64,000 nucleotides of DNA from Patescibacteria group bacterium (GCA_041660005.1 JBAZXG010000001.1:71689-135688), one strand, 5' to 3'; positions 7,133 to 57,957 are shown, counted from the stretch's first letter. Program-made: numbers and translations. The notes: generated by a model from the sequence alone, not told the origin.

Positions 7133-7357
7133 TAATCCCTCCTTGCTGATCGAAACTCGTTGTCTCGCAGCTGAATAAACTACATTTTTTTTTAAAAAAA
7201 GTCAATACTACCGTACGGGTAAAACTGCCTAATGGCAGCATATAGCCTTTCATGTCGAAGCATGACGAAAAGTTCGAAAATCGTTGCAAGCCGAATCGGC
7301 GTCGTTACTGCCCAAAGACTATTGCCGAGGATAGTGAGTGAAGTGCAAATGGCAATT

Positions 7358-7388
7358 TGCATTTCCGAGCGACGTTAGAATCAAAGGG
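7358..7388 (+). repeat. 30-bp conserved motif TGCATTTCCGAGCGACGTTAGAATCAA(A)GGG, copy 1 of 2
   Basis: Near-identical copy at 57928-57957. Contains a TAGAAT -10-like hexamer. Confidence 0.5.
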
Positions 7389-7556: not shown

Positions 7557-8693
7557 CTAACTGTATCGTATTGATTTAACAACTTCTATCAAATCCTTTT
7601 CCGCCTCGTGAATGTCGGACTTCGGGATAACAAACCGAGCGACCGTCTTTGAACCAATCCCCTGCCACCGCTTAGTTAAATCGAGCGCATTATAGTTTGG
7701 GTCAGTTTTAAGCCAGCCGCCGACCGTTCCGTCCTCCTTTTCAAAGAGAAGGGCAATCGTTCGTGCCTGCGGTGTTGTGGCGATAAGTTCGTCAATAATG
7801 CCGACTAAATCTTTTTCAGTTGTTTCGGACTTTACAAAATCTTCTTTGGTCACGAGCGACCACACGAAACGTTGCCCGTCGCTATGTTGCAAACGCGCCA
7901 AAACGCGTCCCCACAAGCGAAGCGTTGTTACATCATGCTGCCGATACAGGTTGTGAATAATTTCATCACGCCGCGCCCCACGCTGCACGAGCTCTGCGGC
8001 AATCATAAGCGAACGCGGCGTCACATTGGGCGCCTTAAAGCTCTCGGTCTTTGCAATCATGCCGGCTAAGAGTGTCGTCGCAACGTCCTCGTCCAAGTGC
8101 TCATCACCCAACGTCTGCAGCAAACGGTAGAGCATTTCTGTCGTTGAAACGGCGGTAATATCAACAAAATTTATCTGTCCGTACTGCTCATTACCTGGGT
8201 TGTGGTCGATATTAATAATGGGCGTTTCATAAAAAAAATCAGGGTGTTCTGTATAGAGCATCCCTAACGAATCGAGATCTGGCGTATCAACAACCATAAT
8301 GAGGTCGTGGCTAGGCTTGCCAATTTCTGCTTTGACATCTGCCGGGTCGAGTTTACCAGAAGCCGGCGCCACATAAATTTTCAGCATATCTCCGTCGACC
8401 TCGTAGCGAAAATCTCGAAGTTTCCCGTCTTTAGGTGAAATCTTAATAACCAAATTTTTCAAACTTTTTCCGTCGCAAACGACTTCTTTTGAATGCGGCA
8501 AAAAACGGCACCGATCCAGAAGGTCTGGTCGTCCGCTTACAATAATCTCAGCGGGAACGCCGAGCTTTTTGAACATAAGATAAAGCGAAAGGCACGACGC
8601 CAAGGTGTCGACATGCATATCATGACGGCACGTGATGAGCACGCGCTTTGCCTCCTTCATGCGCTGGATAATTTGTTGGTCAGTAGAAAGCAT
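7557..8693 (-). CDS. DHH-family phosphoesterase (NrnA-like oligoribonuclease/pAp phosphatase)
   Basis: NIDHNPGN DHH motif and a DHHA1-like C-terminal region. Confidence 0.65.
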   Translation of the reverse strand: MLSTDQQIIQRMKEAKRVLITCRHDMHVDTLASCLSLYLMFKKLGVPAEIIVSGRPDLLDRCRFLPHSKEVVCDGKSLKNLVIKISPKDGKLRDFRYEVDGDMLKIYVAPASGKLDPADVKAEIGKPSHDLIMVVDTPDLDSLGMLYTEHPDFFYETPIINIDHNPGNEQYGQINFVDITAVSTTEMLYRLLQTLGDEHLDEDVATTLLAGMIAKTESFKAPNVTPRSLMIAAELVQRGARRDEIIHNLYRQHDVTTLRLWGRVLARLQHSDGQRFVWSLVTKEDFVKSETTEKDLVGIIDELIATTPQARTIALLFEKEDGTVGGWLKTDPNYNALDLTKRWQGIGSKTVARFVIPKSDIHEAEKDLIEVVKSIRYS

Positions 8694-8792
8694 AGAAAAA
8701 TCGAATACCCCCGAAAAGGGAGCTGAGTACCCTACAATTTTTATGGGCGTGTGTCAAGCGATTTCTGTAACTTATGCCTTTGAACCGTTTTT

Positions 8793-8930
8793 TAACAGTA
8801 AATCGGTAATCCCACTTCGCTAATCTTTTTCGCCTAAACTATGACGGGTCAAGAAGCTACCCGGGATATTTTTGCCTCAGTAATGGTAACCTCGCGGCAA
8901 GCCGACGAGGTATTGGCAAAAATAACCTTG
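8793..8930 (+). repeat. Sequence upstream of valS that recurs in expanded form at 48205-48430
   Basis: CCCACTTCGCTAA...GACGGGTCAAGAAGCTAC...GGTAACCTCGCGGCAAGCCGACGAGGTATTGG. The 32-nt core is identical in both copies and can form a 6-bp stem with an 11-nt loop. Confidence 0.6.
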
Positions 8931-8972
8931 TACTCATGCAGTAATAATGCGATAATTTCGGCCATAAACGCT

Positions 8973-11642
8973 ATGACTGAGAAAGAAGCATTACCCAAGA
9001 GCTACGAGGCAAAAGCAATCGAAACCACCATCTATGAAGGATGGGAGGACGCTGGTGCATTTCTCCCTAAAAAACGAAAGGGCGGCAAAAAAGATCCCTT
9101 TGTTATATCGCTCCCTCCCCCAAACGCCACCGGTACGCTCCATTTGGGTCACGCCACCATGCTTGCCATTCAAGACATCATGGTTCGCTACCACCGCCTC
9201 TGCGGAGATGAGACGCTGTGGGTTCCCGGGACTGATCACGCGGCAATAGCCACACAGAACGTCGTTGAAAAAAAAATATGGAAAGAAGAGGGTAAAACGC
9301 GGCATGACGTCGGACGAGATAATTTGCTCCACCGCATCGACGAGTTCGTTGCCTCGTCGCGTGAAACCATTCGTTTGCAATTTCGACGCATGGGCGCTTC
9401 CTTGGACTGGTCGCGAGAACGATTTACGCTCGACGAAACGCTGAATCGCTGCGTGCGTCTCGTTTTCAAAATGATGCACGACGACGGGCTCATTTACCGC
9501 GGTAACCGCATTGTTAACTGGTGCACGCGCTGCCAAACAACGCTGGCTGACGACGAGGTTGAATACAAAGAAGAAAAAGCGCCGTTCTATCACTTCAAGT
9601 TTGGTCCCTTCTCTATCGGCACCGTGCGTCCAGAAACCAAACTGGGAGACAAGTATGTGGTGGTGCATCCAGACGATGAGCGCTTTACCAAGTACCACGG
9701 ACTCAAGCAAATGATTCCCTGGATTTCTGGCGACGTTGAGATGCAAGTGCTCCCTGATGAATCCGCCGACCCTGAAATGGGCTCGGGCGCCATGACCATC
9801 ACTCCGCAACATTCTTTTGCCGACTTTGAAACCGCAGAGAAACACGGTCTCGAAATAAAAGAAAATATTATTGGTCTAGATGGTAAACTCACCGCAGCTG
9901 CTGGTGAGTTTGCTGGCCTACCCGTAAAAGAGGCGCGGAAAAAGTTTGTCAAAATTTTAGAAGCAAAGGGACTCATCGAAAAAATTGACGAAGACTACGT
10001 ACACAACTTGTCAGTGTGCTACCGCTGCGGAACACCCATTGAGCCGCTCATCTCAAAGCAATGGTTCGTGGCGGTCAATAAACCCGTAGCACGCCTCAAT
10101 GGCAAAACATTGCGTGAACGTGCTGAGGAAGTGGTAAAAAACGGCGACATCACCATACTTCCAGAAAATTTCTCTAAAATATATCGACACTGGATGGCGA
10201 ACCTGCACGATTGGTGTATTTCGCGACAAATTTGGTACGGACACAGAATTCCCGTGTGGTATAGAGGGCAAGTCAAAATTCAAAAGTTAAAAGTTAAAAC
10301 TGCAACTTCAAAAATAATAACTAAAAATGATTTAGAAATGTATGTTGGTGTAACAGCGCCAGAGGGCGAGGGTTGGGAACAAGACCCTGATACTCTCGAC
10401 ACCTGGTTTTCGTCAAGCATGTGGACGTTCTCGACACTACTCAACGCTTCCGAAGAAGCCCCAACACTCAACGACTGGCTCGCTAAAAGCGACGACTTCA
10501 AACGCTACCACCCCACTTCGGTTCTTGAAACGGGTTACGACATTCTAAACTTCTGGGTAGCACGCATGATTCTTATGACCACCTACGCTGTGGGGCAAAT
10601 CCCCTTCCATACGGTGTACCTCCACGGCCTCGTGCGCGATAAAGAAGGAAGAAAAATGAGTAAGTCACTAGGTAACGGCATCGACCCCGTTGCCATGATT
10701 GAAAAATATGGCGCTGACGCAGTGCGGTTGTCCTTGGTCATTGGCACCACCCCAGGAAATGATATACGCCTCTTTGAAGAAAAAATTGCCACCTACCGAA
10801 ACTTCGTCAACAAGCTTTGGAATATCTCCCGCTACATTCTCATGACAACAGAGGTAACAAAAGAAACGCCCAAAGCCACAACTGCCGCTGATCTTTGGCT
10901 TTTGCGAACATTCGACGAACTTAAAATAAGTGTTGATGAGCACATTGCAAACTACCGCTTTTCAAGCGCTGGCGAAGAACTCTATGAGTTTACCTGGCAC
11001 GAACTGGCAGATTGGTATGTTGAAATCGCTAAAATTGAGGGCGGTAAAGACGCCATACTCCGCTCCATCCTCAAAGAATTACTGGCGCTCTGGCACCCCT
11101 TCACGCCTTTTGTGACTGAGCACATTTGGCGCCATCTTGGCGAGCGCGAACTTCTTATCACGAATGCCTGGCCAAACATTCCAACAAAAAAACATCTAGA
11201 GACACCGCACACCGAAACTCAAGAAGCTGTTGAAACAATGAGCTCTCTGCAATGGATTATAAAAACGATCCGTGACCACAAACAAAAATTTGGCAATGAT
11301 ACCGTATACACTATTGCCACAAACGAATTCTCTCGTTTCCAGGAACAAAACGAAATCATTCAAAGACTTACCAGAACAAACGTGAACTATGCCGACAGCG
11401 CACCTTCTGACAGTGTTGTTGTGAACAGTCTTGGAAGCATTACCATTTTTTGCCTTGGTAATGTTACACTAGACAAAGAGAAGATAGAGAAAGAACGCGA
11501 GGAAACAGAAACACAAATCCGGCAAATCGAAACCCGTCTAAACGACAAAGAATTTCGAGCAAAAGCACCGCAGGCAATTATTTTGAAAGAAGAGACGCGT
11601 CTAGCAAAAGCCAAAGAACGCCTCGACAAACTTACCCAATAA
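8973..11642 (+). CDS. valS: Valine--tRNA ligase
   Basis: PPPNATGTLHLGHA (HIGH) and KMSKSLGN motifs with a C-terminal coiled coil. Start set at MTEKEALPKSYEAK; the tracked start at 8841 overlaps the conserved noncoding repeat and is probably spurious. Confidence 0.9.
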   Translation: MTEKEALPKSYEAKAIETTIYEGWEDAGAFLPKKRKGGKKDPFVISLPPPNATGTLHLGHATMLAIQDIMVRYHRLCGDETLWVPGTDHAAIATQNVVEKKIWKEEGKTRHDVGRDNLLHRIDEFVASSRETIRLQFRRMGASLDWSRERFTLDETLNRCVRLVFKMMHDDGLIYRGNRIVNWCTRCQTTLADDEVEYKEEKAPFYHFKFGPFSIGTVRPETKLGDKYVVVHPDDERFTKYHGLKQMIPWISGDVEMQVLPDESADPEMGSGAMTITPQHSFADFETAEKHGLEIKENIIGLDGKLTAAAGEFAGLPVKEARKKFVKILEAKGLIEKIDEDYVHNLSVCYRCGTPIEPLISKQWFVAVNKPVARLNGKTLRERAEEVVKNGDITILPENFSKIYRHWMANLHDWCISRQIWYGHRIPVWYRGQVKIQKLKVKTATSKIITKNDLEMYVGVTAPEGEGWEQDPDTLDTWFSSSMWTFSTLLNASEEAPTLNDWLAKSDDFKRYHPTSVLETGYDILNFWVARMILMTTYAVGQIPFHTVYLHGLVRDKEGRKMSKSLGNGIDPVAMIEKYGADAVRLSLVIGTTPGNDIRLFEEKIATYRNFVNKLWNISRYILMTTEVTKETPKATTAADLWLLRTFDELKISVDEHIANYRFSSAGEELYEFTWHELADWYVEIAKIEGGKDAILRSILKELLALWHPFTPFVTEHIWRHLGERELLITNAWPNIPTKKHLETPHTETQEAVETMSSLQWIIKTIRDHKQKFGNDTVYTIATNEFSRFQEQNEIIQRLTRTNVNYADSAPSDSVVVNSLGSITIFCLGNVTLDKEKIEKEREETETQIRQIETRLNDKEFRAKAPQAIILKEETRLAKAKERLDKLTQ

Positions 11643-16140: not shown

Positions 16141-16525
16141 GTCTATTTCTTTGTGCGGGCAAAGAAATAGACGAAAGAAAGCCCGCCCCGCATCGACGCT
16201 CCTGGTCAGCAGCCATTTCGAAACGAACACGGCGGCAATGAACTCGCTTTCAGCTCAAACAGCATTGCCGCTCTCTCGTGTTCGTTTCGTCCGTCTGCTC
16301 TCCCCGGTCGATGAGGGGGTTTGTGAAACAAGAGTGCAAAGCCCATAGGATCGGCGTCGGTAATGATTAGCGGAGAGAACCGAAAGAATGGTCGTGCTGT
16401 TTGACCCTGAGCGAAGTCGAAGGGGAGTTCACGACCATCGGTTTTCGGAGTGCAGTCATGCCCCAGCCGAGTCCTCAGGGTGTCTTTCTTTCCGTCCACT
16501 TTCTTGGACAAGCAAGAAAGTGGAC
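16141..16525 (+). repeat. Structured noncoding element family, copy 1 (~390 nt), bounded by palindromic hairpins
   Basis: 5' hairpin GTCTATTTCTTTG-N7-CAAAGAAATAGAC and 3' hairpin GTCCACTTTCTTG-GACAAG-CAAGAAAGTGGAC. The ~170-nt core is near-identical to copies at 29004-29382 (inverted) and 47057-47272. A variable long hairpin sits at the same position with different sequence in each copy. A conserved tail extends to about 16790. Confidence 0.75.
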
Positions 16526-16745
16526 AACTAGTCTCGAGGCCGGAGGCCGAGGACGTTATGTTCGTAGAGTGAAAAAATTCCCATAAGATCAATGTTGGTA
16601 GTGACACGTACAAAGAGAGCCACTAACCCTTAGTGTCTGGTCGTGACAGTGAGATCAGAGTCTACGGTGTTGGTTCACAGTTATTTACTTTTAACTTGCA
16701 GTTTTGCCTTTTGCCTTTTAATTTTTGAATTATCCCCTTTTATAT

Positions 16746-17024: not shown

Positions 17025-18098
17025 ATGGCAGGAAGAGCGGGTCGAGGAGACCCAGGTGGTGGTGCGGGAGACCCGAACGGGGTACCCGAGTCGCTTCGGA
17101 TAGACGGAATACGTCTCTGGACTGAAGCGCGTGCAGGCGGAACCTACGCCGCACACGCAGTGGTACGGACGACGCAAAACCGAAAGACCGTAACGAGACA
17201 GGCCGCACTCACGGTAAATGGCATTGCGAGAAACGATGCCGGCGCCGTGAGCGAAACGAACGCCAGGGATGGGCAGACCATCCTGACGACAATCGTGGAT
17301 CCTGTCGTCGACGGACTTTCGGTCGAGGTCAACGCCTTCATTGTCGGAACAACGGTCACAGCAACTCCGCGGCGACTGCTGTTCACTGGTACCACGGCTG
17401 TGGAAATCAAACCAGTGAAAACAGTCACGGCACGGACGACGGGTGCGAAGAGTGACATGCACCACGTTCCAGTCGGACTGTTCGATGAGAACGGATCCCC
17501 GACAATCGGAACGGCACGGGCACTCTACGGCGACTGCGCTGTGGACCACTGCATCGGTCTCGGCGGTCTCGTGCTCCCGTTCACCGTTCCCGACGGCGAG
17601 ACGCTGGCAGTCACGATCGAGTCCCCTGGAGCAGCACCAATAACGGTAGCGCTTCAAGGGCGCGACAAGCCGAGTCCCCCGCCGCGACCAGCGAAAGTTC
17701 AGCTGGCGGCGCTGCCGACGACGTGGGACGCAACGACCGGTGCAAGCAGCACGATTTCAACACCCCGCGCCTACGACAGCAACGGTGACGGAGTCGAGTG
17801 CCATCTCTTCTTCGCTACCAAGAGACCCGTCAGGATGATCGTTCGCGAGGACGGAAAAAGGACGATCACACACAACAACGTACGGGCTTTCGACTTCCAT
17901 GTGAAAGCAAAGCCCACAACGAGCTGTGAGTTCGTCAACGTTCACGAAGAACACATTGAAGTGAACTGCGATGTCCTCGGACTCGACGGCGCAATCGATA
18001 ACATGGTACTGCCTGCCGCCGAACCCCGACCCGGGGAATGGCGCGCCGACATGACCAAAACGGAAAAGCGGCGATACTATCGCCTGGGAGGCAAGTGA
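17025..18098 (+). CDS. Hypothetical protein (high-GC island 1)
   Basis: About 63% GC. AAGGAG RBS 11 nt upstream of the ATG. No recognisable family. Confidence 0.5.
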   Translation: MAGRAGRGDPGGGAGDPNGVPESLRIDGIRLWTEARAGGTYAAHAVVRTTQNRKTVTRQAALTVNGIARNDAGAVSETNARDGQTILTTIVDPVVDGLSVEVNAFIVGTTVTATPRRLLFTGTTAVEIKPVKTVTARTTGAKSDMHHVPVGLFDENGSPTIGTARALYGDCAVDHCIGLGGLVLPFTVPDGETLAVTIESPGAAPITVALQGRDKPSPPPRPAKVQLAALPTTWDATTGASSTISTPRAYDSNGDGVECHLFFATKRPVRMIVREDGKRTITHNNVRAFDFHVKAKPTTSCEFVNVHEEHIEVNCDVLGLDGAIDNMVLPAAEPRPGEWRADMTKTEKRRYYRLGGK

Positions 18099-18973
18099 TG
18101 ATGACCATACCACAGGTGGCGCTTTACATCGCCATCATGGTTCTCGGAATGGTTGCCTTCGGGTGGCCGTTCTGTGAGTTCGTACTCGTGATGACGCTCA
18201 TAGTCATTGGCATCTTTGCTGTCCTCTTCTGGCAACGCCGGACAGAGTGGCAGGAGTTGCCGGAAGACGTGCGTTCAGCGCGAGAAAACAGAACCGAATA
18301 TTGGCTCGCGATGACGGGTCGTTTCCCGTCCAATAACATCGTCTGGTGCGGTTGGATTGCAGCGGCAATGCTCTCGAGCATCATCGCCGTAACTCATCCA
18401 GGTCCAAGCGCGATTGACTACCTCACGGCGCCGCAATCGTCGCGGGCGAGAGAAATCACGCAACAGACCGACCGAGAAATCGCTGCCTTGTGGCATCTCG
18501 CCAAAACGGGAAGTTTCAGCGGCGGCGAGTCGGTCACAACCGAAGACGAAGCGAAGGAAGCTGGTGACTGGCGACGGTGGCCGATGAGTCTGTACATGTG
18601 GTTCATGGCCCTCGTCCTCCTCGTCCCGACCATCTGGGACGAACTGAGGGAAGCGGGAAGAAGCGCTGTCGATCATACGTACCGCCACTTTGGTGGTAAC
18701 GTCACGATCACAGGACCTGGAGCCGGCTTCGCAACAAGCCTGCTCAACGCGGCGGCACGTCGCGCTGGAACCACGCTAACGTTGCCGACCACACCCCCAA
18801 CCCCTGCTCCCGCACCCGTACTGGGCGCACCGCCATCAACCGGCTCGTCCATTGACCGTGCGGTTGCATCAATCACGTCGAGCACGTTCCTACAACACGT
18901 GCTCGCCAGCCTGATCCCGGAATTACTCGACCGAGTATCCTGGGGTCGTATCCTGCATAGGAGAACAGCATGA
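18098..18973 (+). CDS. Hypothetical membrane protein (high-GC island 1)
   Basis: GGAGG RBS. Start overlaps the preceding stop (TGATGA). Several TM segments and a Pro/Thr/Ala-rich linker. Confidence 0.55.
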   Translation: MMTIPQVALYIAIMVLGMVAFGWPFCEFVLVMTLIVIGIFAVLFWQRRTEWQELPEDVRSARENRTEYWLAMTGRFPSNNIVWCGWIAAAMLSSIIAVTHPGPSAIDYLTAPQSSRAREITQQTDREIAALWHLAKTGSFSGGESVTTEDEAKEAGDWRRWPMSLYMWFMALVLLVPTIWDELREAGRSAVDHTYRHFGGNVTITGPGAGFATSLLNAAARRAGTTLTLPTTPPTPAPAPVLGAPPSTGSSIDRAVASITSSTFLQHVLASLIPELLDRVSWGRILHRRTA

Positions 18974-20394
18974 ACTTCTGGACCGAAAACTGGAAACGGA
19001 TGGCCGGCGGCCTGCTCTTGCTCGCCGTTCTCACTCACTACGTGATGGGCGTCGGCTACTTTGCCTCGCTCATCACCGCAACCTGCATGGCGGGTGCAGT
19101 CTATGCCCGCTCGTGGCTCATCGCTTCCACCTGGAAGCGAACGGGTAACGCCGTCCTCGCTGCGCTCGTCGTGTTCGTCGCTTGGAGGGTAGCCACCAAC
19201 TACCTGCCAGAAACGATGAACACGCTACGCAAAAACGTCTCGGTGACGGACTCCGTCAGCAAGCAGCTGACGAAGGGCGATACTACCGGCGTGTCGATCT
19301 CGGCTGGACGCCGAGAGTTCTGGCAGGAGAGGGCTGAACTAAAGCTCAGGGCAGACATGGACCTCGCGTTCTGGCGCTGGAATCGGTACAACACCGATGA
19401 CGCGGGGAGGCAAAAAGAAGAGGCAGAGGCAATTGCGAGCTACCGCACCCGGATCGACGAGCTAGAGAGGCAGTTCTCAATGACTCCTCCGACGATGTCG
19501 AAGGTCGTCGAAGGAGTTCGCACAGGAGCTTCTGTCGCCGTCGGCTTCGACTGGCGAGGATGGTTGATGAGCTTCACTACCGGTGAAGTCATGTCATACT
19601 GCATCTTCGTCATTCTGGTCCTCGCTGCTCTGCGGCTCGCGTTCGGCCTCTGGACCAGCCCGGGTTCCATCCTGGGCCGGCTCGGCTACTGGCAGCAAGT
19701 GGCTGTTGCGATCCTGATCGTCGCCGTCGCCAGTGGAACGGCGGTCTGGGGCTACAGTGGCCGGTTCTTGAGCGACGCGGTACAGGCCGGAGCTCACAAG
19801 GTCCTAGACGGCGTTGTCGAACTCAAAGGGAAGGCCATACTGGTCAACCCCGAGGGAACGAACGTCGTGCTGGACGGGTCGGAGGAGATGCCAATCCAGG
19901 TTGCCATCTACCACGGACTCCTTCAGCCGGTCAGACTCGAACACCCTGAGACGAGAGTCTACGCCTGCCGACTCGACGACTACGGCGAGGAAGACGGGTG
20001 CGGCTGGGGTCTGCGACGCCTTTTGGAAGGCTCAACCACGACCACAACGATGCCGCCCACAGCGGCACCGCAACCAACTGCTACTGCGGGTGCAACGCCC
20101 GCTACGGCCCCCGTCTATGTAGACGGGAAGGCAACCTACACAGAGTGGGATGGCGTCCTCAGTGCCGGGGAAGAGGTGTGCACGTACGGGCCAACGAACA
20201 CACCGCAAAACAAGCCCCTGCGCATCTTGGACGCGTGGGGAAAGAGCCTGCTCGGTCTGGACGAGCAGGGCGAGGAGAAACTGCAAGTTCCAGGTAGCGG
20301 TCACACCCTTGGCGACTACAGCGGCGTAATCTGCCGCCAAGCCGTCGAAGACGGCACAGCGCTGCGTATCCGGCCCGGATACGCAGGAACATGA
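18970..20394 (+). CDS. Hypothetical membrane protein (high-GC island 1)
   Basis: ATGA start/stop overlap with the upstream gene. TM segments, a TTTTMPPTAAPQPTATAGATPATAP linker, and a Cys-containing C-terminal domain. Confidence 0.55.
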   Translation: MNFWTENWKRMAGGLLLLAVLTHYVMGVGYFASLITATCMAGAVYARSWLIASTWKRTGNAVLAALVVFVAWRVATNYLPETMNTLRKNVSVTDSVSKQLTKGDTTGVSISAGRREFWQERAELKLRADMDLAFWRWNRYNTDDAGRQKEEAEAIASYRTRIDELERQFSMTPPTMSKVVEGVRTGASVAVGFDWRGWLMSFTTGEVMSYCIFVILVLAALRLAFGLWTSPGSILGRLGYWQQVAVAILIVAVASGTAVWGYSGRFLSDAVQAGAHKVLDGVVELKGKAILVNPEGTNVVLDGSEEMPIQVAIYHGLLQPVRLEHPETRVYACRLDDYGEEDGCGWGLRRLLEGSTTTTTMPPTAAPQPTATAGATPATAPVYVDGKATYTEWDGVLSAGEEVCTYGPTNTPQNKPLRILDAWGKSLLGLDEQGEEKLQVPGSGHTLGDYSGVICRQAVEDGTALRIRPGYAGT

Positions 20395-20531
20395 AACCCA
20401 AGACGGGACTCGCCCAACAAAGGAGGCGGGCGGGTCCCAAGAACCGAAGAGCGAGAGCAGGACCATGCCCACCACGCATGTCTCCCTGCCTCGCTCTTTT
20501 TCGTTACCTAAAAAACAGCTATGCTTCCCAC

Positions 20532-21284
20532 ATGGAAACAGAAACACTACGTGTCGGCATTCTCTTTAACGGTTTTGTGACTGCTATTGTGAGCGCAACT
20601 GCTTTTGCGCTTCTTCTTTTTTTGGTGCAACGATGGAAGACCCTAACCCCTGGCATGCGCTCCTACGCCTGGTTTTGGGGCTTTACCAGTCTCGTCTGGC
20701 TCGCAGTTACCATTCGCTACATCATGGTTGTTGCCGGCATTAACACGCCGAGCATCCATCGAGTGAATGAATTCATTGTAGAAACTGCCGTGTTTGGTTC
20801 TGGCATTGCTCTCTATATTTACCTTGGACGACAACTTTTCAAAAAACGTCTCGTCACTATTATTCTTGGAGTTACATCAACGACGTTAGCTTGTTTGGCA
20901 CTTTGGCAACTCTTGCAGCCGAATGCTTTTCACCCCGCTGAAATAACTTTTTTCACGGCAGATCCAAAACCGAACTTTTTTTTTCTCGTAATCTTTGGCA
21001 TTTTGGCAACGCTCGGGCTACTCATGCTTTTCTACCACTCGATCAAACGTTTTCGCATATGGCGACGAGGCAATCGAGAGACTGTACCCTACGAAGCACT
21101 TTACTCCGCCAGTCTCATTGTTTACGTTATGCTCGGCATGATTGACCAGGCAAAACTTATTATTGACTGGCCGCTCATTGTCTTTCGCATCTTGTACACA
21201 GCCGTGTTTCTGGCAGCGTACCTCATTATGGCCGCAGAAGAAGCTCGTCGCAAAGACGCCTTTATCATCAGTTCAGAAAATTAA
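20532..21284 (+). CDS. Hypothetical polytopic (about 7-TM) membrane protein
   Basis: Host-like GC. The tracked ORF 20391..21284 crosses the island boundary; the start at METETLRVG is more plausible. Confidence 0.5.
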   Translation: METETLRVGILFNGFVTAIVSATAFALLLFLVQRWKTLTPGMRSYAWFWGFTSLVWLAVTIRYIMVVAGINTPSIHRVNEFIVETAVFGSGIALYIYLGRQLFKKRLVTIILGVTSTTLACLALWQLLQPNAFHPAEITFFTADPKPNFFFLVIFGILATLGLLMLFYHSIKRFRIWRRGNRETVPYEALYSASLIVYVMLGMIDQAKLIIDWPLIVFRILYTAVFLAAYLIMAAEEARRKDAFIISSEN

Positions 21285-21330: not shown

Positions 21331-21380
21331 GTCAAGCGTTTCAAATATGCGTGTCTACCTTTTTAGGAAAATTTTCATTG

Positions 21381-21662
21381 CTAAACTAAATGTTTAGTAA
21401 TGAATGCCCTACCTGACCCCGACTTGAAATACTTCTCAAGAATGAACGCTGTCTTTTTGTCTCTAACACCGATATAAAAAGAAAGCTCCACCGGTAAACG
21501 ACCTTTAGTTGCAGGGACGAAACCTTTTCGATGTCTAGCTATCCTTTCTTTAAGATCTGCGGTGCAACCAACATAATACCCATCCTTACATTTGAGTGAA
21601 TAGATATAGTACATACATGCCCGCTTACTCTCCAAACAATAAATGATAACTGGCTTTGCCAA
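21381..21662 (-). CDS. GIY-YIG nuclease-domain protein
   Basis: IYCLESKRACMYYIYSLKCKDGYYVGCTADLKERIARH matches the GIY-YIG motif layout. Confidence 0.65.
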   Translation of the reverse strand: MAKPVIIYCLESKRACMYYIYSLKCKDGYYVGCTADLKERIARHRKGFVPATKGRLPVELSFYIGVRDKKTAFILEKYFKSGSGRAFITKHLV

Positions 21663-21930
21663 GCCGAAGCTTGAAGAACGAGGATGGCTTTGCCAAGCCG
21701 AAGCTTGAAGAACGAGGATGGCTTTGCCAAGCCGTAGCTATGGCGAAGGATTGTGGGCTGCATCAAACAAACATCTCAGTCCGACTACGCTAAGGCTTCG
21801 TCGTGACAGCCTTCGCTAAACCTAAGTAACTGGCTTTGCCAAGCCGAAGCTTGAAGAACGAGGATGGCTTTGCCAAGCCGTAGCTTGAAGAACGAGGATG
21901 GCTTTGCCAAGCCGTAGCTATGGCGAAGGC
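21641..21930. repeat. Tandem 33-34-bp repeats (TGGCTTTGCCAAGCCGAAGCTTGAAGAACGAGGA) in two blocks of three, abutting the tRNA-Asp 3' end
   Basis: Six copies read directly: 21641, 21675 and 21709 (variant), an 80-bp spacer, then 21821, 21855 and 21889 (variant). The variant unit ...GCCGTAGCTATGGCGAAGG precedes both the spacer and the tRNA. Confidence 0.8.
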
Positions 21931-23181: not shown

Positions 23182-23261
23182 AGCAGCTGATTTTACTTCA
23201 CGCGGTCGATAGGTTCTACGCAAGGGAAAGAAATAAAATAAATAAATTCGTCTGTGCCAAC

Positions 23262-23345
23262 CGTCGCTTATAGAACGAAAGTGGCTTGCCAGCCGTAGCT
23301 CACAGAACAAGGATGGCTTGCCAGCCGTAGCTCGAAGAGCGAAGG
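23262..23345. repeat. Two further tandem ~33-bp repeats of the same family (TGGCTTGCCAGCCGTAGCTC...), abutting the tmRNA 3' end
   Basis: Same family as the 21641-21930 repeats, with the GCGAAGGCTGG junction variant again next to the RNA gene. Confidence 0.7.
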
Positions 23346-23390
23346 CTGGTGCTGTGCACCGCGTAGCCCCGAGTATAACGAGGGGCGAAG

Positions 23391-39292: not shown

Positions 39293-39478
39293 AAAAATAG
39301 TATTACTCCTTTGTTGCCTGCGTCACTCGGAAATAAAAAGACCGCGCTAGTTACTGCACGGCGCCTGAAGACTTTACTAGAAAACCCGAATAAATGCAAG
39401 CCCTGACGGTTAAAGTCTTTTCACTGCATCAAACATTCAAGGCCAATACTCACCCACAAAAGACCCCGCCACAGCCGT

Positions 39479-39500
39479 TTCCATGTACTAGTACATGGAA
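39479..39500. promoter_or_regulatory. 22-bp perfect palindrome TTCCATGTACTAGTACATGGAA (site 1 of 5)
   Basis: Read directly. Lies just downstream of the last paralog gene. Confidence 0.7.
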
Positions 39501-39539
39501 ATTTATCAAGCAGTTAGTTAACAAAACAATAAAACAACG

Positions 39540-39869
39540 CTAGTACGCATCAACCCCGAACGGTCTCCAATTGTCAAATATTTGTCCTTGAGAGAGAAAA
39601 GTAAGGATAAGAAAAAATACAACGAAACCACAAAAAATTATTACATACGTTCTTTTGGTTGACCGAAAGCAGAATGCTGAAATCAAAAAACCAAACAAAA
39701 GGTAAAAAGGATATAACCAAAGTGCCCATGAAGGCCCGCCAAATAACGACAAATTAAATCGAGTTAATCTAGATTCTTCGCTTAATGTTATCAAGAGATA
39801 ACTAATGACTAAACCTATAACAATAAGAACGAATTTTCGCATTGCTGATCTAAAGCTAATTGATCGCAT
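39540..39869 (-). CDS. Small 3-TM membrane protein, paralog 1 (B-type) of a five-gene tandem array
   Basis: 109 aa. Conserved WLYPFYLL core and C-terminal QGQIFDNWRPFGVDAY. About 90% identical to 40788..41108. Confidence 0.8.
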   Translation of the reverse strand: MRSISFRSAMRKFVLIVIGLVISYLLITLSEESRLTRFNLSLFGGPSWALWLYPFYLLFGFLISAFCFRSTKRTYVIIFCGFVVFFLILTFLSQGQIFDNWRPFGVDAY

Positions 39870-40033
39870 AACTAATTTCTCCTTTGCTAATTAATAATTG
39901 TATATATTGTGAGCCATTGTACTCAATTTTCTTTTGCGGCTCTTCATATTCTTTGCTAACCACGAGTGTAGTGTCTGTTTTACCATTGAAGCGACCAACG
40001 GTAAAGCACTGGCTCATACCTTTTATGCTTACG

Positions 40034-40055
40034 TTTCCACGTACTAGTACATGGA
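40034..40055. promoter_or_regulatory. Palindrome site 2 (TTCCACGTACTAGTACATGGAA, one mismatch)
   Basis: Lies inside a roughly 105-bp intergenic block that is almost identical to the one at 41230-41335. Confidence 0.7.
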
Positions 40056-40096
40056 AATATATAAATAATCTGTGAATAAGAGAAAATCAGGTAGTA

Positions 40097-40429
40097 CTAA
40101 TAGGCGTCGACCCCGAACGGTTTCCAGTTGAAAAATATTTGACCCTGCGTCAAATAAAAAAACAGTAAAAAAACAACGATGAATCCCAAAACAACTCCTA
40201 AATAGGTACGTCTTCCAAAACGAAAAATCACAGCCGAGAGCAAGAACCCCAAAAGTAAATAAAAGGGATATAGCCAGTTTGCCCAGAAAAAAGTTCCAGC
40301 GCCAATTGATGTAATTTTTTTGAATTCACTTATGCCTAAAAACAGATAGCTTAACAAAAAACCGACCAGCCAAAAAAGTAGTGCTCTTATAACTTTTAAT
40401 ATACTAATCTTTTTCATAAGTAAACTCAC
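40097..40429 (-). CDS. Small 3-TM membrane protein, paralog 2 (A-type)
   Basis: 110 aa, MSLLMKKIS... ...NWKPFGVDAY. About 85% nucleotide identity to 41336..41668. Confidence 0.8.
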   Translation of the reverse strand: MSLLMKKISILKVIRALLFWLVGFLLSYLFLGISEFKKITSIGAGTFFWANWLYPFYLLLGFLLSAVIFRFGRRTYLGVVLGFIVVFLLFFYLTQGQIFFNWKPFGVDAY

Positions 40430-40458
40430 CTTTGCTGACGACTAACGATCACGTAATA

Positions 40459-40767
40459 CTAATAGGCATCAACACCAAACGGTCTCCAATTATCGAATAG
40501 GTGACCCTGTAGTGCATAAAACCAAAAAATAAAAAGGATAACAAACCCGATAAAAATCACTACATAGACCCACCTATTGGCGCGGAATACTGAAGCTGAA
40601 ATAAAAAAGGAAACGAAAAAGTATAATGGGTAAAGCCATAATGCCCAGGAAGCGCCGCCAAGGGGAACAAAATTCATGTGAGTAACTCCCGTATTCTCAC
40701 TTAGGCTTAATAACAAATATAAAATAAGTAGACCAAGAACGAAAAATTCAAAAGTCTTCATTGCCAA
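40459..40767 (-). CDS. Small 3-TM membrane protein, paralog 3 (divergent C-type)
   Basis: 102 aa, ...ALWLYPLYFF... ...DNWRPFGVDAY. Confidence 0.8.
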   Translation of the reverse strand: MAMKTFEFFVLGLLILYLLLSLSENTGVTHMNFVPLGGASWALWLYPLYFFVSFFISASVFRANRWVYVVIFIGFVILFIFWFYALQGHLFDNWRPFGVDAY

Positions 40768-40787
40768 CTAATAACGATCAAACAACA

Positions 40788-41108
40788 TTAGTAAGCGTCA
40801 ACCCCAAACGGTTTCCAGTTATCAAATATTTGACCTTGGGAGAGAAAGATAAAAATAAGAAAAAATACAACGAAACCACAAAAAATTACTACATACGTTC
40901 TTTTGGTTGACCGAAAGCATAATGCTGAAAGCAAAAAACCTAACAATAAATAAAAAGGGTAGAGCCAATTTGCCCAGTAACGAGTGCCCAACCCAATCGA
41001 TGTGACTTTATAAAACTCACTAACACCAAGAATGATGTAAGAGATCAGTAAACCCAAAAATAGAATCCCCAAAGAGCGCAGTAGTGATTTAATACTAATT
41101 AAATGCAT
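40788..41108 (-). CDS. Small 3-TM membrane protein, paralog 4 (B-type)
   Basis: 106 aa, ...CFRSTKRTYVVIFCGFVVFFLI... ...DNWKPFGVDAY. Confidence 0.8.
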   Translation of the reverse strand: MHLISIKSLLRSLGILFLGLLISYIILGVSEFYKVTSIGLGTRYWANWLYPFYLLLGFLLSALCFRSTKRTYVVIFCGFVVFFLIFIFLSQGQIFDNWKPFGVDAY

Positions 41109-41273
41109 AACTAATTTCTTTTTTACTAATTAACAATCGTATGTACTGTGAACCGTCATACTCAATTTTCTTTTGCGGCTCTTTGTATTCTTTGCTAACC
41201 GCAAGCGTGGTATCTGTTTTTCATTTGAAGCGACCAACGGTAAAGCACTGGCTCATACCTTTTATGCTTACGT

Positions 41274-41295
41274 TTCCACGTACTAGTACATGGAA
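41274..41295. promoter_or_regulatory. Palindrome site 3 (TTCCACGTACTAGTACATGGAA)
   Basis: Duplicate of site 2 within the tandemly duplicated unit. Confidence 0.7.
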
Positions 41296-41335
41296 ATATA
41301 TAAATAATCAGTGAATAAGAGAAAATCAAGTAGTA

Positions 41336-41668
41336 CTAATAGGCGTCGACCCCGTATGGTCGCCAATTATGAAATATTTGACCTTGTGTCAAGTAGGTGA
41401 ACAATAAAAAAACGACGATGAATCCCAGAAAAACTCCTAAATAGGTACGTCGTCCAAAACGAAAAATTGTAGCAGATAACAAGAACCCCAACAGAAGATA
41501 AAAAGGATAGAGCCAGTTTGCGTAAAAAAGTGTCCCCCAACCAACTGATGTAATTTTCTTAGCTTCACTTATGCTTAAGAACAGATAGCTTAACAAGAAA
41601 CCGACCAGCAAAAAAAGTAGTGCTCTTAGAACTTTTAACATACTAATCTTTTTCATAAATAAACTCAC
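41336..41668 (-). CDS. Small 3-TM membrane protein, paralog 5 (A-type)
   Basis: 110 aa, MSLFMKKIS... ...HNWRPYGVDAY. Start overlaps the 3' end of the upstream giant gene by 26 nt. Confidence 0.8.
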   Translation of the reverse strand: MSLFMKKISMLKVLRALLFLLVGFLLSYLFLSISEAKKITSVGWGTLFYANWLYPFYLLLGFLLSATIFRFGRRTYLGVFLGFIVVFLLFTYLTQGQIFHNWRPYGVDAY

Positions 41669-44876: not shown

Positions 44877-44979
44877 TATTATTAAATTAGTCCAATCTAA
44901 AAAATTCTGCAACACGACTTATGCACAAGCCCAGAAGTGTCAGCAGCTTCCGTGTATTCATCCCGAGGCATGTCGAGGG

Positions 44980-44993
44980 ACTAGTACATGGAA
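44980..44993. promoter_or_regulatory. Palindrome site 4 (half-site ACTAGTACATGGAA) in the promoter region of the giant gene
   Basis: The right half is intact; the left half is replaced by GTCGAGGG. Confidence 0.5.
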
Positions 44994-45277
44994 ATATATG
45001 ACTCTAAAATTCATCAATCGTTGGTTACCTTAACTTTGTTAACTAAAAAACAACAAAAAAACACCTTTGTGCCAAAATCATGACCTCAAACGTGACAACG
45101 ACCATGATTGCTTTTTTGGACTTTTTGAGGCAAGATAGCCCCGTTGTTCTTTAATAATAAATTCGGACGGACACTTAAATTGCCAATTTAATCGGCACTT
45201 TGGGCGTCCGTCTTGAATAAAGATAGCGACGAAGGAGCGGGACAAGAATCATGGCTACGAACACAGGAGGCAATTCC

Positions 45278-47056: not shown

Positions 47057-47272
47057 CCCATAGGATCGACGTAGGTAGTGACGAGCGGAGAGAACTGAAA
47101 TAATGGTCGTGCTGTTTGAGGAGTGCTAACGACGAGTTTACGACCATCGGTTCTCGGAGTGCAGTCATGCCACAGCCGAATCCTTAGGGTGTCATTTCCG
47201 CCGAAGGCGGATCGTTCTCCGAAGGACTTTCCGTCTACTTTCTTGGACAAGTCCCGACGTAAAGTCGGGACC
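47057..47272 (+). repeat. Structured noncoding element family, copy 3 (5'-truncated)
   Basis: Core CCCATAGGATCG...GGAGAGAAC...AATGGTCGTGCTGTTTGAGGAGTGCTAACGACGAGTTTACGACCATCGGTTCTCGGAGTGCAGTCATGCC... matches copies 1 and 2. The terminal hairpin is replaced by GTCCCGACGTAAAGTCGGGAC. The conserved tail (ACTTGCAGTTTTGCCTTTTG...TTTTGAATTAT...TTGACA) extends to about 47530. Confidence 0.7.
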
Positions 47273-47557
47273 CCGATTCAATAGATTTTATTAAGAATGG
47301 CGTCGGGACAAAAAGGTAACAATCAGTCTCGAGGTCCCGTCTGACAGGATCGAGGACGTTAAATTTGTTGAGCGAAAAAGAGAAACGTATCTGCTATAGT
47401 TTTTCCACCGTAAGTGGATCCGCAATTGGCGGAAGTTTTTGACTTGCAGTTTTGCCTTTTGATTTTTGAATTATTAGCTGTCCCTTTTGACATCCCCCAT
47501 TGAATCCTTTAACCTGCGGTCAAGGACAAAGACAAATGGGGATAAGGAGAGTGCAAC

Positions 47558-48064
47558 TTGACAACAGCCGCACAAATAGAAAAAGGAAGGGAGCAGATTC
47601 GTTTTGACAACTTCAGTGCCCTAAGGGACAAGGTCGGTGGATCGTTTACACCATGGGGCGACGGAATCAGAGTCACTGAGACAATGATCCAAGCATTCGT
47701 GGCGGTAAGCGGTGAGGACCACTGGATTCACACCAATAGGGAACGTTCACGGAGCGAGGGACCGTTCGGCGACATCATTGCGCCAACCTCACTCATCGTC
47801 TCCGCGGCATACCGGTCAGGGTTCGATCCCGGCTTCGATATCACCAATGCGACCGTTCAGCGAACCATTCACGGCACGTTCAGTGTGCTCGGCGTAGTAC
47901 CGGTAGACACCACCATCCACTCCCGAAGCCGATTTCTTGCCGTAGCCAATCTCGACGCTTTCGGAACCAGATTGACGTTTGAGTTCCAGGTGAGAAGGGA
48001 GGGGCACTCCCATCTCGTACTTTCGGGAGAGATTTCCGTCCTGTACAATGCGCCGGCCAAATGA
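47558..48064 (+). CDS. MaoC-like (hotdog-fold) dehydratase
   Basis: AFVAVSGEDHWIHTNRERSRSEGPFGDIIAPTSL matches the MaoC dehydratase motif. AAGGAG RBS with TTG start. Confidence 0.55.
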   Translation: MTTAAQIEKGREQIRFDNFSALRDKVGGSFTPWGDGIRVTETMIQAFVAVSGEDHWIHTNRERSRSEGPFGDIIAPTSLIVSAAYRSGFDPGFDITNATVQRTIHGTFSVLGVVPVDTTIHSRSRFLAVANLDAFGTRLTFEFQVRREGHSHLVLSGEISVLYNAPAK

Positions 48065-48140
48065 CCGACGCCGCCTACCAACCGCAACCAACTGTCCGAG
48101 AAGGAGTAGTTTATCCCCACTGCTCCTTCAACCCCCTTGT

Positions 48141-48162
48141 TTCCATGTACTAGTACATGTGC
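48141..48162. promoter_or_regulatory. Palindrome site 5 (TTCCATGTACTAGTACATGtgc, right end degenerate)
   Basis: Read directly. Followed by a CCCCGCCCCAGAGGGGACGGGG hairpin. Confidence 0.6.
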
Positions 48163-48204
48163 TTGCCTCAGAATACATTACCCCGCCCCAGAGGGGACGG
48201 GGTA

Positions 48205-48430
48205 TGTAATGGTGATCCCACTTCGCTAACCTCCTTCGCCTAGGCTACGGACGGTCAAGAACCTCCTTCGCTCCCACTTCGTATCAAACTACGGCGTGAC
48301 ACAGCAATGCTACGGCCGGTCAAGGACCTCCTTCACCTAGGGCTACGGCGGGTCAAGGAGCTACGAGGGATATTTTTGTCTTCTGCAACGGTAACCTCGC
48401 GGCAAGCCGACGAGGTATTGGGGACAAAAA
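48205..48430 (+). repeat. Expanded copy of the valS-upstream element, with three internal tandem copies of a ~30-bp motif (CTACGGNCGGTCAAGRANCTMC)
   Basis: GGTGATCCCACTTCGCTAACC... then three CTACGG-CGGTCAAG units, then the identical 32-nt core GGTAACCTCGCGGCAAGCCGACGAGGTATTGG. Confidence 0.65.
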
Positions 48431-48575
48431 TAAAAAACCAAAACTACTAACAAGCAAGCCCACCTTAGTAATTATTTGCAAACGAGGAACGAGGGCGCGA
48501 TGTAGTGTCGCGCCCTCGTTGTTGTTTGTCATACGGCGGTCTTGTTTGAAAAAGACCGAAACCGCAAACAAGAAA

Positions 48576-49415
48576 TTAAAAGCCGACGTAGGAAAGCCCT
48601 CCCGAGGTTCCCCCACTAGCTGTGGCCGCATCGACTGTGTCGATGACAAGGCCACGCGACTCTTCACGTACCAGCAGCGGGTCAGCACCCTCCAGCTGGT
48701 ACCCCGGCAATGTGTAGCCGGGTGTCTTGAAGTCCCGGAAGAGTGTCGCCGCATGCGTCAACATGGCGAAGATCGCATCCGGTCCCGAGAGCACGAAGCC
48801 CTCCGACAGCGTTGCCATCTGCTCACGTTGCGCGAGCACTGAATACCCTCTCAGGGCTTCCGGGAAGTACAGGCCGAAGACTGGCCCACACGTAAGCCGC
48901 TCGAACAACAGCTCGAGTCGACTTTCAGGCGCGAGAGAGACTTGGGACCCCAGCATGGGAAAGTACCGATACACTGACCGGCTTGGAAACCGCAAGGAGT
49001 ACGCATGGGCGACCCCCTGGAACATCGTTTCCATCCACTCACCGTGATCTCGAAGCTGCACCTGTGGGATGGCCCATGGAAGACAGACTCCGTTCAGAAT
49101 CCCCGCGGTCGCCCGCTGTTTTCCTAGCTCGAGTCGTAGAGCCGTGCAGTGATCACCCGTTTCGGCCGGGAGGGGCATCTCAACGTATCCCCTGAAAGCC
49201 TCGGTCGCTGTCCGCCATCCCCCGAAAGCGTCGCTCGCTGTCCGGTACAAAGCCGGATAAAAAATGCTCGACGGGGTCAGCTGAAGTCGACGGTCAGCGG
49301 GTTCCGCTTTACCCTGCATCCCAGGAGGCGGGATACGCACACCGGACTCGTCGAAGTCCCCACCCAGATAAACGCTCTTGAGCGGCATCTCTGTCGCGAA
49401 ATAATGTCGTCGCAT
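48576..49415 (-). CDS. Hypothetical protein (high-GC island 4)
   Basis: About 60% GC, 279 aa. GC-rich hairpins downstream at 48489-48521. Confidence 0.45.
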   Translation of the reverse strand: MRRHYFATEMPLKSVYLGGDFDESGVRIPPPGMQGKAEPADRRLQLTPSSIFYPALYRTASDAFGGWRTATEAFRGYVEMPLPAETGDHCTALRLELGKQRATAGILNGVCLPWAIPQVQLRDHGEWMETMFQGVAHAYSLRFPSRSVYRYFPMLGSQVSLAPESRLELLFERLTCGPVFGLYFPEALRGYSVLAQREQMATLSEGFVLSGPDAIFAMLTHAATLFRDFKTPGYTLPGYQLEGADPLLVREESRGLVIDTVDAATASGGTSGGLSYVGF

Positions 49416-57888: not shown

Positions 57889-57927
57889 TTTATTACCGGG
57901 TCTTCGAGCGAAGCGCACATAGCAAAG

Positions 57928-57957
57928 TGCATTTCCGAGCGACGTTAGAATCAAGGG
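57928..57957 (+). repeat. 30-bp conserved motif TGCATTTCCGAGCGACGTTAGAATCAAGGG, copy 2 of 2
   Basis: Matches 7358-7388. Confidence 0.5.

Follow-up and report, generated by a model that had tools for sequence, protein, structure and literature searches.

The described repeats closest in kind to the element reported here are the REP/BIME sequences of enterobacteria and pseudomonads, which are short imperfect palindromes confined to intergenic DNA, built as mosaics of modules in variable copy number and placed in either orientation, often near terminators or between convergent genes, with differences in presence or absence among relatives. MITE elements and the palindrome-associated elements derived from IS200/IS605 (PATE) are small, non-autonomous, structured and multi-copy, and reside only between genes. 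Elements of the IS200/IS605 type feature strand-specific imperfect hairpins with extrahelical bases and have neither terminal inverted repeats nor target duplications. The tyrT-rtT sequence of E. coli has tandem units starting from the 3′ CCA of a stable RNA gene. Among RNAs, the twister, twister-sister, pistol and hatchet ribozymes are small and scattered in multiple intergenic copies across phyla, with a conserved core and covarying stems. To our knowledge, few accounts exist of small dispersed repeats in Patescibacteria, whose genomes are reduced. The element that we describe shares the above features with each of these systems: it is an intergenic mosaic found in 6-10 copies within single metagenomes and in at least two copies in its source genome, its subterminal hairpins are imperfect (an A is bulged) and their G·U variants are strand-specific, and related tandem units start from the CCA of tRNA-Asp, of tmRNA and, at one locus of a relative (L074), of tRNA-Val.

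Two sites in the window (the whole 64,000-nt stretch of Patescibacteria DNA that was analysed) carry the same 32-nt sequence, GGTAACCTCGCGGCAAGCCGACGAGGTATTGG; one lies upstream of valS and the other at 48 kb. This identity, which the initial annotation had pointed out, proved to be exact: the window has two plus-strand occurrences and no more, at 8885-8916 and at 48390-48421, the chance expectation is 0, and in 100 shuffles there was no match, three mismatches being permitted. The surrounding 57 nt (8869-8925 versus 48374-48430) are 82% identical, and a separate 54-nt block (8805-8858 versus 48211-48264) is 80% identical. A Logan k=31 contig from the same organism (SRR18595301; L080 5055-5080, spanning window positions ~48409-48434) stops within the 32-nt core, at ~48409, as expected for an exact repeat longer than k. 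The source genome has at least two cores and four unit clusters, as counted in 64 kb of a 245-kb contig. We consider it probable, at roughly 60%, that each of the two sites carries a copy of a composite, non-coding repeat, a mosaic of hairpins that is REP/BIME-like in kind. A small repeat family had been among the alternatives offered initially, and dispersed, multi-copy, intergenic copies were indeed found, as described below.

The two copies have a common architecture (Table 1). In both, a 5-bp helix closes the 5′ domain, ATCCC (8809-8813 in copy 1, 48215-48219 in copy 2) pairing with GGGAT (8863-8867 and 48367-48371, respectively), so that the fold has two domains, a variable 5′ domain and a conserved 3′ stem-loop. 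The stem-loop, ~60 nt as a whole, has an outer stem of 10-13 bp around an apex that is alike in both copies, ACCTCG-CGG-CAAG-CCG-A-CGAGGT. The hairpin annotated as ACCTCG-(11 nt)-CGAGGT is therefore real, and its 11-nt 'loop' itself folds into CGG-CAAG-CCG with a bulged A. The 71-nt folds of both copies had z = -3.8, with 0 shuffles folding equally well, and the outer stem shows a compensatory C:G to U:A change between copy 1 (GCC/GGC) and copy 2 (GUC/GAC). In the 5′ domain of copy 2, the three iterations of a submotif that had been noticed were found at 48244, 48309 and 48342, with a unit of ~26 nt; this expansion would probably have arisen by local tandem duplication of units. We picture the element as having two parts: the first would be a variable number of lineage-specific modules, in which CUUCGC ... 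GCUACG surrounds small GG-CAA(G/A)-CC hairpins, and the second a stem-loop of ~60 nt, which has its apex, CCUCG-CGG-CAAG-CCG-(bulged A)-CGAGG-UAU, in common with many otherwise unrelated intergenic elements.

Table 1. Coordinates of the repeat copies and of neighbouring and related features in the window
Feature	Position	Strand	Description
Promoter of divergent DHH-family gene (7557-8693)	8729..8757	-	TTGACA 8757-8752, 17-nt spacer, TAGGGT 8734-8729
Copy 1, 5′ domain	8805..8867	+	cap GGTAATCCCACTTCGC 8805-8820; one unit CTATGACGGGTCAAGAAGCTAC 8839-8860
Copy 1, long stem-loop	8867..8924	+	outer stem TATTTTTGCC/GGCAAAAATA; 5′ internal loop of 12 nt
valS promoter	8928..8956	+	TTGTAC 8928-8933, 17-nt spacer, GATAAT 8951-8956; immediately 3′ of the element
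tRNA-Asp tandem array	21651..21919	-	consensus GCTACGGCTTGGCAAAGCCATCCTCGTTCTTCAA, 34-nt period, 7.6 copies, two 110-nt blocks
tmRNA trailer units	23255..23390	-	CCACCA-CTTCGCC-hairpin-GCTACG, then 2.5 copies of GCTACGGCTGGCAAGCCATCCTTGTTCT
Palindrome sites	39476-39509, 40032-40065, 41271-41304, 44969-45002, 48138-48171		5 matches versus 0.09 expected
GC-rich hairpin	48179..48204		TACCCCGCCCCAGAGGGGACGGGGTA, then TATGTAATGGT
Copy 2, expanded 5′ domain	48205..48371	+	cap GGTGATCCCACTTCGC 48211-48226
Copy 2, units	48244-48269, 48309-48334, 48342-48367	+	second unit 92% and third 69% identical to the first
Copy 2, second cap-like sequence	48273-48281	+	CCCACTTCG; degenerate unit 48289-48301
Copy 2, long stem-loop	48371..48432	+	outer stem TATTTTTGTC(TTC)/(GGG)GACAAAAATA; two U·G pairs
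Canonical intrinsic terminator	48488..48520	+	15-bp stem, then T-rich tail; 55 nt 3′ of copy 2

The 48-kb copy is an expanded paralogue lying in a convergent spacer, 5′ of a terminator. The site is flanked by high-GC ORFs without a family match, 47558-48064 (+) and 48576-49415 (-), and adjoins a palindrome (48144-48159), in agreement with its initial placement between high-GC islands beside a palindrome. The long stem-loop was not called as an intrinsic terminator by the scan; on the plus strand it is followed by AAUAAAAAAC. Terminators were also found 3′ of the element at six other loci (L006, L017, L038, L009, L002 and L072). Within the ORF 48576-49415, a 30-nt tandem duplication (1.9 copies, 89% identical) was seen at 49187-49244.

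Units related to those of the 5′ domain also follow two stable RNA genes of the window. The unit pattern GCTACGG, 3-9 nt, CAAR, 3-14 nt, TCCTY has six matches in the window, versus 0 expected; two are at 48.2 kb, three are directly 3′ of tRNA-Asp and one is directly 3′ of tmRNA. Tandem Repeats Finder reported the 34-nt unit (7.6 copies, 21651-21919) and a 32-nt unit (2.5 copies, 23255-23333) at the latter two places. Both arrays open right after the CCA with (G)CCTTCGCC ... GCTACGG, the tRNA-Asp array beginning at the CCA end with GCCTTCGCC, and their pairing of the motifs CTTCGC ... GCTACG is that of the element cap (ATCCCA-CTTCGC). The small hairpins of the units have GG-CAA(G/A)-CC tips, which resemble the apex of the core. 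The arrangement CCA-CTTCGC...GCTACG was also found after the tRNA-Val of the Uhrbacteria relative (L074), and it was absent after the other tRNAs there and in more distant loci. A tRNA gene lies within 1.5 kb of the core at only five loci. In those copies that are transcribed (tRNA and tmRNA trailers, gene 3′ ends), the hairpins would probably act as 3′-end, processing or stability structures, a role suggested by where they stand, which is shortly 5′ of terminators and behind tRNAs, tmRNA and the ends of genes.

A small gene for a GIY-YIG nuclease (21380-21617, minus strand) lies beside the tRNA-Asp array of the window, directly after this trailer, and further GIY-YIG genes were seen near valS in L076 and L077. 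Linkage of such genes to the element was unconvincing, as one lies within ~1 kb of the core in only two of ~40 element loci (L059 and L019, where it adjoins the element).

The core hairpin is widely dispersed. An exact scan of GTDB, represented by one genome per GTDB species, with a 23-mer query gave 10 loci in nine genomes, labelled Saccharibacteria, Falkowbacteria, Taylorbacteria, unclassified Patescibacteria, Flavobacteriales, Bacteroidetes, Lentimicrobiaceae, Bdellovibrionales and unclassified bacterium; at least four Patescibacteria lineages are among these labels, which come from MAG bins and may in some cases be wrong. A scan of metagenome contigs with a 19-mer gave 63 loci, ~45 of which we regard as genuine by the presence of GUAU after the core and an AT-rich intergenic setting; ~17 are chance or coding matches in high-GC DNA. 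Both window copies and all genuine loci, which have the core motif CCUCG-CGG-CAAG-CCG-A-CGAGG-UAU, are intergenic. The 21-25-nt tip recurs at dozens of unrelated places in MAGs labelled Patescibacteria and Bacteroidota, and exact conservation spans 23-36 nt of the apex. The core was not found in IMG/VR, among PLSDB plasmids or in E. coli genomes, and a literature search with the 12-mer GGCAAGCCGACG returned only an unrelated plasmid sequence. Searches of Rfam (Rfam 15) gave no match at the gathering threshold in the window and nine loci, and only noise at E-values up to 5-10 for both sites and eight loci. A tRNA-like or universal-RNA origin of the core was rejected, ARAGORN making no call at the sites and E. 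coli offering no match. With so many dispersed copies (nine GTDB genomes, ~45 metagenome loci) unrelated to either valS or islands, the tie to both that had been proposed initially does not hold.

Outside the window, the copies differ in what surrounds the apex. Those most like the window copies, group (a), include L017, which has the cap, hairpin and stem-loop, and L006, from Saccharibacteria, with flanks unrelated to the window, as well as L014, which has the stem-loop only, joined directly to the GC hairpin module of window 48179-48204. The stem-loop of copy 2 is 92-94% identical to those of L014 and L017, which have unrelated flanks. Since L014 is devoid of the entire 5′ domain, the parts of the element are modular; modules are gained or lost among the two window copies, L017 and L014. 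Group (b) comprises multi-copy families of 90-215 nt starting at AATGAAC, of Lentimicrobiaceae and Falkowbacteria types; single metagenomes contain 6-10 copies, and similarity does not extend into their flanks beyond the first base. In group (c) the stem-loops stand alone or in tandem, and their outer stems are non-homologous (L016, L021, L029, L046, L038 and L051); in L016, for instance, two of them are placed between rplS and a gene for an ABC permease. L051 has a pair of inverted copies separated by 3.5 kb, but the genes that they enclose are ordinary and include no transposase. L001 (Flavobacteriales label) and L003 (Bacteroidetes label) share a ~196-nt multi-hairpin element, 90% identical, that starts 8 nt before the core and stands in different contexts, after nth in one and between folP and cdaA in the other; it had no Rfam match at the gathering threshold.

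The orientation of the element relative to flanking genes is mixed (~7 sense, 4 antisense), which fits poorly with a simple role as a co-transcribed RNA; gene contexts are unrelated, and no neighbouring protein family was recurrent or enriched across 40 loci. We also considered the copies as independent sRNA genes, in which an own promoter would drive a ~130-300-nt structured RNA extending to the nearby terminator, with the apex binding a protein or target. Such an arrangement would suit copy 2, placed between a hairpin that closes the upstream gene and the canonical terminator, and the layout of element, A-rich tract and terminator shared by L006, L017 and L038; L014 even has a perfect TATAAT 7 nt 5′ of the stem-loop, and the structure is strand-specific. 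However, no -35/-10 pair is common to the copies, the promoter scan was negative at both sites, and copy 1 has no terminator before valS. In the multi-copy families, moreover, the flanks diverge at the first base of the element, so any promoter would have to be internal. We therefore regard sRNA genes as a rather unlikely explanation, and retain that of a hairpin-mosaic repeat.

The substitutions among copies bear on the strand that folds. CCCCG...CGGGG replaces CCUCG...CGAGG in at least two families, and the apical CGG/CCG is changed to CCG/CGG (CCG-CAAG-CGG) in L016 and L019. The genuine copies have three G·U variants versus 0 A·C variants; two U·G pairs are present in the outer stems of copy 2, L014 and L017, and the second hairpin of the AATGAAC families has two covarying pairs plus three consecutive U·G pairs. 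The outer stems had no common register in a MAFFT alignment. Flanks of the same core were more complementary to each other than were flanks taken from different loci (mean duplex energy -11.4 versus -8.1 kcal/mol; permutation p = 0.0005 for 26 cores, one or two per locus, with ±30 nt, from 20 loci chosen for family representation). A first test, which took in every copy with flanks of ±40 nt, fell short of significance (p = 0.067); significance was reached only with the selected cores and the shorter flanks. No substitution pattern of the DGR type (A to N) was seen between copies. The compensatory and G·U changes, together with the complementarity of non-homologous flanks, indicate a strand-specific folded hairpin, of either RNA or single-stranded DNA. 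These comparisons show an apex kept as a strand-specific fold within surrounding stems that are freely replaced.

An invariant apex within covarying stems, matching no Rfam family, could also belong to an undescribed class of functional RNA, for instance small ribozymes that cleave themselves, or handles by which a mobile or defence system recruits a protein. As with small ribozyme classes, multiple copies are scattered over phyla, always between genes, whatever the context and in both orientations. Yet beyond the apex and GUAU there are no unpaired nucleotides conserved across all families, the architecture around the apex differs among families, and there is no associated gene; we judge a new RNA class of this sort to be quite unlikely. 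On the reading as a dispersed repeat, the conserved apex would be the handle for a factor that copies or uses the element, which we infer to be either a single-stranded-DNA nuclease or recombinase acting in trans or an RNA-binding or processing factor.

Copy 1 lies in the spacer between valS and a divergently oriented gene (7557-8693) assigned to the DHH family by a Pfam match. The closest relatives of its ValRS are in a Candidatus Uhrbacteria genome (71% identity) and on two metagenome contigs (64%), and the gene order DHH-family gene (-), valS (+), tyrS, argS is conserved in all of them. The Uhrbacteria DHH-valS spacer has only 125 nt and aligns with the window at both ends; its left end has the DHH promoter block TTGACA-17-TAGKGT (~85% identical; L075) and its right end the valS promoter CTTGWA-17-SATAAT, 15-17 nt from the ATG. 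It is without a mid-part of ~150 nt that includes the whole element, and keeps both promoters. The -35/-10 arrangement of valS and its distance to the ATG recur in L075 and L076. Because relatives keep both promoters without the element, copy 1 (8805-8924) lies between two divergent promoters and outside both predicted transcripts, the promoters being consensus readings conserved across three genomes rather than mapped start sites. The comparison of spacers shows the valS copy to be a lineage-specific insertion between these predicted divergent promoters; outside both inferred promoter-driven transcripts, it would most likely be a neutral passenger there. In the 64% relative, the same DHH-valS spacer has a different, hairpin-rich insert of ~230 nt (L076 1850-2080 and L077 1783-2013), which includes CCCCGAGCGCGCCAAGCTCGAGG and ends in AATAAATAAAAAAG. 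Modules of this kind seem to have landed in the DHH-valS spacer more than once.

These findings also bear on a valS leader, that is, a cis-regulatory element (an attenuator, say, or a site bound by ValRS or by tRNA) with a duplicate elsewhere. The element is near valS, on the valS strand and strongly structured, as such a leader would be. However, the orthologous spacers of the two nearest relatives (L075 and L076) do not contain it, contrary to the idea of a conserved valS-linked element, and it lies 5′ of the conserved -35 box (8928-8933), outside the predicted transcript. Neither a T-box nor any other Rfam family matched, the second copy has no downstream gene, and other copies stand beside unrelated genes. 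A leader is thus extremely improbable, and the cis-regulatory RNA for valS and island genes proposed in the initial annotation is not supported. The element did affect the annotation of valS. The ValRS of public databases has 933 aa, starting from an ATG at 8841 inside the repeat (P0001, 100% match); homologues, on the other hand, cover an 889-aa protein from the ATG at 8973, and the conserved promoter (8928-8956) agrees with this position. The true valS start is the ATG at 8973, and the 44 extra residues of the public annotation (8841-8972) are translated repeat, as had been suspected from the over-long ORF.

The location of copy 2 raised the question of an att-like recombination site, at which islands would integrate into the repeat or into CCA-CTTCGC trailer-like sequences and leave unit arrays at their borders. 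A unit array stands at the right end of both high-GC blocks (the tRNA-Asp array for 17.0-21.3 kb, copy 2 for 47.5-48.1 kb), the left sides of both blocks have in common a ~170-nt block and a promoter-like block, and the element cap resembles the first bases after the CCA of tRNA and tmRNA. Against integration, none of the eight large ORFs of the two high-GC blocks matched an integrase or recombinase in Pfam or PHROGs; all that the scan gave was a MaoC-like Pfam match for 47558-48064, weak and below threshold, and a weak match to one PHROG without a known function. No island adjoins the valS copy, where the GC content is 45-50%, and L014, L017 and L006 carry the element among ordinary genes. 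Nor are the two window copies direct repeats around one island: 39.5 kb separate them, an interval that contains valS as well as genes for tRNA, tmRNA and ribosomal proteins, and hence they bracket no island. The core, furthermore, sits in unrelated repeat families in genomes of other phyla. For these reasons, the att-like role suggested initially is very unlikely. In the empty-site comparison for the 45-49.4 kb blocks, the flanking ABC permease had its best relative at 62%, with non-Patescibacteria labels.

Other repeats were seen in the same DNA. The ~170-nt block (16342-16512 versus 47057-47251) is ~89% identical between its two copies, and the promoter-like block (TTGCAG..TTTAAT) is at 16689-16745 and 47437-47493; they lie just 5′ of the high-GC ORF blocks 17025-21284 and 47558-48064, which are without a family match. 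The ~170-nt block has no Rfam match and overlaps short minus-strand ORFs; it could represent a leader common to both, or else an end of inserted elements that are related. The palindrome TTTCCATGTACTAGTACATGGAAA, perfect over 24 nt, occurs three times in a 36%-GC block, and degenerate copies of it stand on either side of the 45.0-48.1 kb high-GC block. In positions 39525-41539 (GC 36-40%), a 219-nt repeat is present five times and a 300-nt repeat twice (61-84% identity); this is probably a tandem series of paralogous genes or cassettes with the palindrome between them. Another repeat pair, of 52 nt and 87% identity, is located at 7336-7387 and 57906-57957 (GAGYGAAGYGCAMATRGCAA..GCATTTCCGAGCGACGTTAGAATCAA).

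The match upstream of valS is a generic dispersed repeat, neither a regulator nor an island border, and it explains both the wrong public start codon of valS and the break in the k=31 assembly. In kind, a dispersed hairpin repeat is ordinary; what is unusual is that its tip is base-for-base identical in genomes labelled as different phyla. Such exactness, far above that of classical REP families, may reflect a specific function rather than mere selfish spread. As a tentative and on balance improbable proposal, the invariant apex could be the recognition handle of an undescribed system, either a new structured RNA class (a protein-recruiting element or a small ribozyme) or a new hairpin-directed mobilisation by which short modules would move between phyla in freshwater and groundwater communities. 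Among the copies compared, no mobilising enzyme, terminal inverted repeats, target-site duplications or conserved target sequence were found, and the hairpin module had no counterpart in Rfam or in the literature search. Should a common factor or horizontal spread account for its distribution, the module would be of use for tracing genetic exchange in these communities, and would qualify as a candidate for a new RNA motif.

Set against the described systems, the element departs from each of them in some respect. Integron attC sites have the boxes R″ (RYYYAAC) and R′ (GTTRRRY) at the base of the folded site, and the stem-flanking TGGTAAC ... GTATTGG of our element fits neither. Integrase attL/attR sites were rejected on the lack of direct repeats bracketing an island and of an integrase match in the eight scanned ORFs. 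CRISPR and TIGR arrays have repeats with variable spacers between them and adjoining cas or tas genes (TIGR: PMC12045711); the units here are head-to-tail and near-identical, without variable spacers, and we rejected this reading accordingly. The self-cleaving ribozymes differ in that our element had no Rfam match at E-values up to 10 and no conserved junction or internal-loop nucleotides were identified in it. Unlike tyrT-rtT, the 32-34-nt hairpin modules are also found away from tRNA genes, and they have no Rfam rtT match. As compared with PATE, the left flanks share only a terminal A or AA, with no conserved 4-5-nt target, and neither tnpA/tnpB nor a transposase-like neighbour was seen. As compared with MITE, the multi-copy families, which run from AATGAAC to ..GAGAATAAA or ..AGATTAAA, have ends that are not inverted repeats and flanks that are not duplicated. 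REP sequences, finally, differ in several ways. The GTAG/CTAC tetranucleotide is absent from the REP position, the sequence before the core being GGTAA, YAU or GAAYUA and that after it UAUY, and the units have CTAC 5′ of the hairpin, in a mirror arrangement. No RAYT gene (REP-associated tyrosine transposase) was seen within the 64 kb of the window, and no neighbour family recurs in the 40 loci. REP families are species-specific, whereas the apex here is identical across phyla, and what is conserved is the tip of the hairpin rather than the whole palindrome. Because it departs from REP in the GTAG tetranucleotide, and from MITE and IS200/IS605 as well, we class the element as a small dispersed structured repeat that stands outside the named families.
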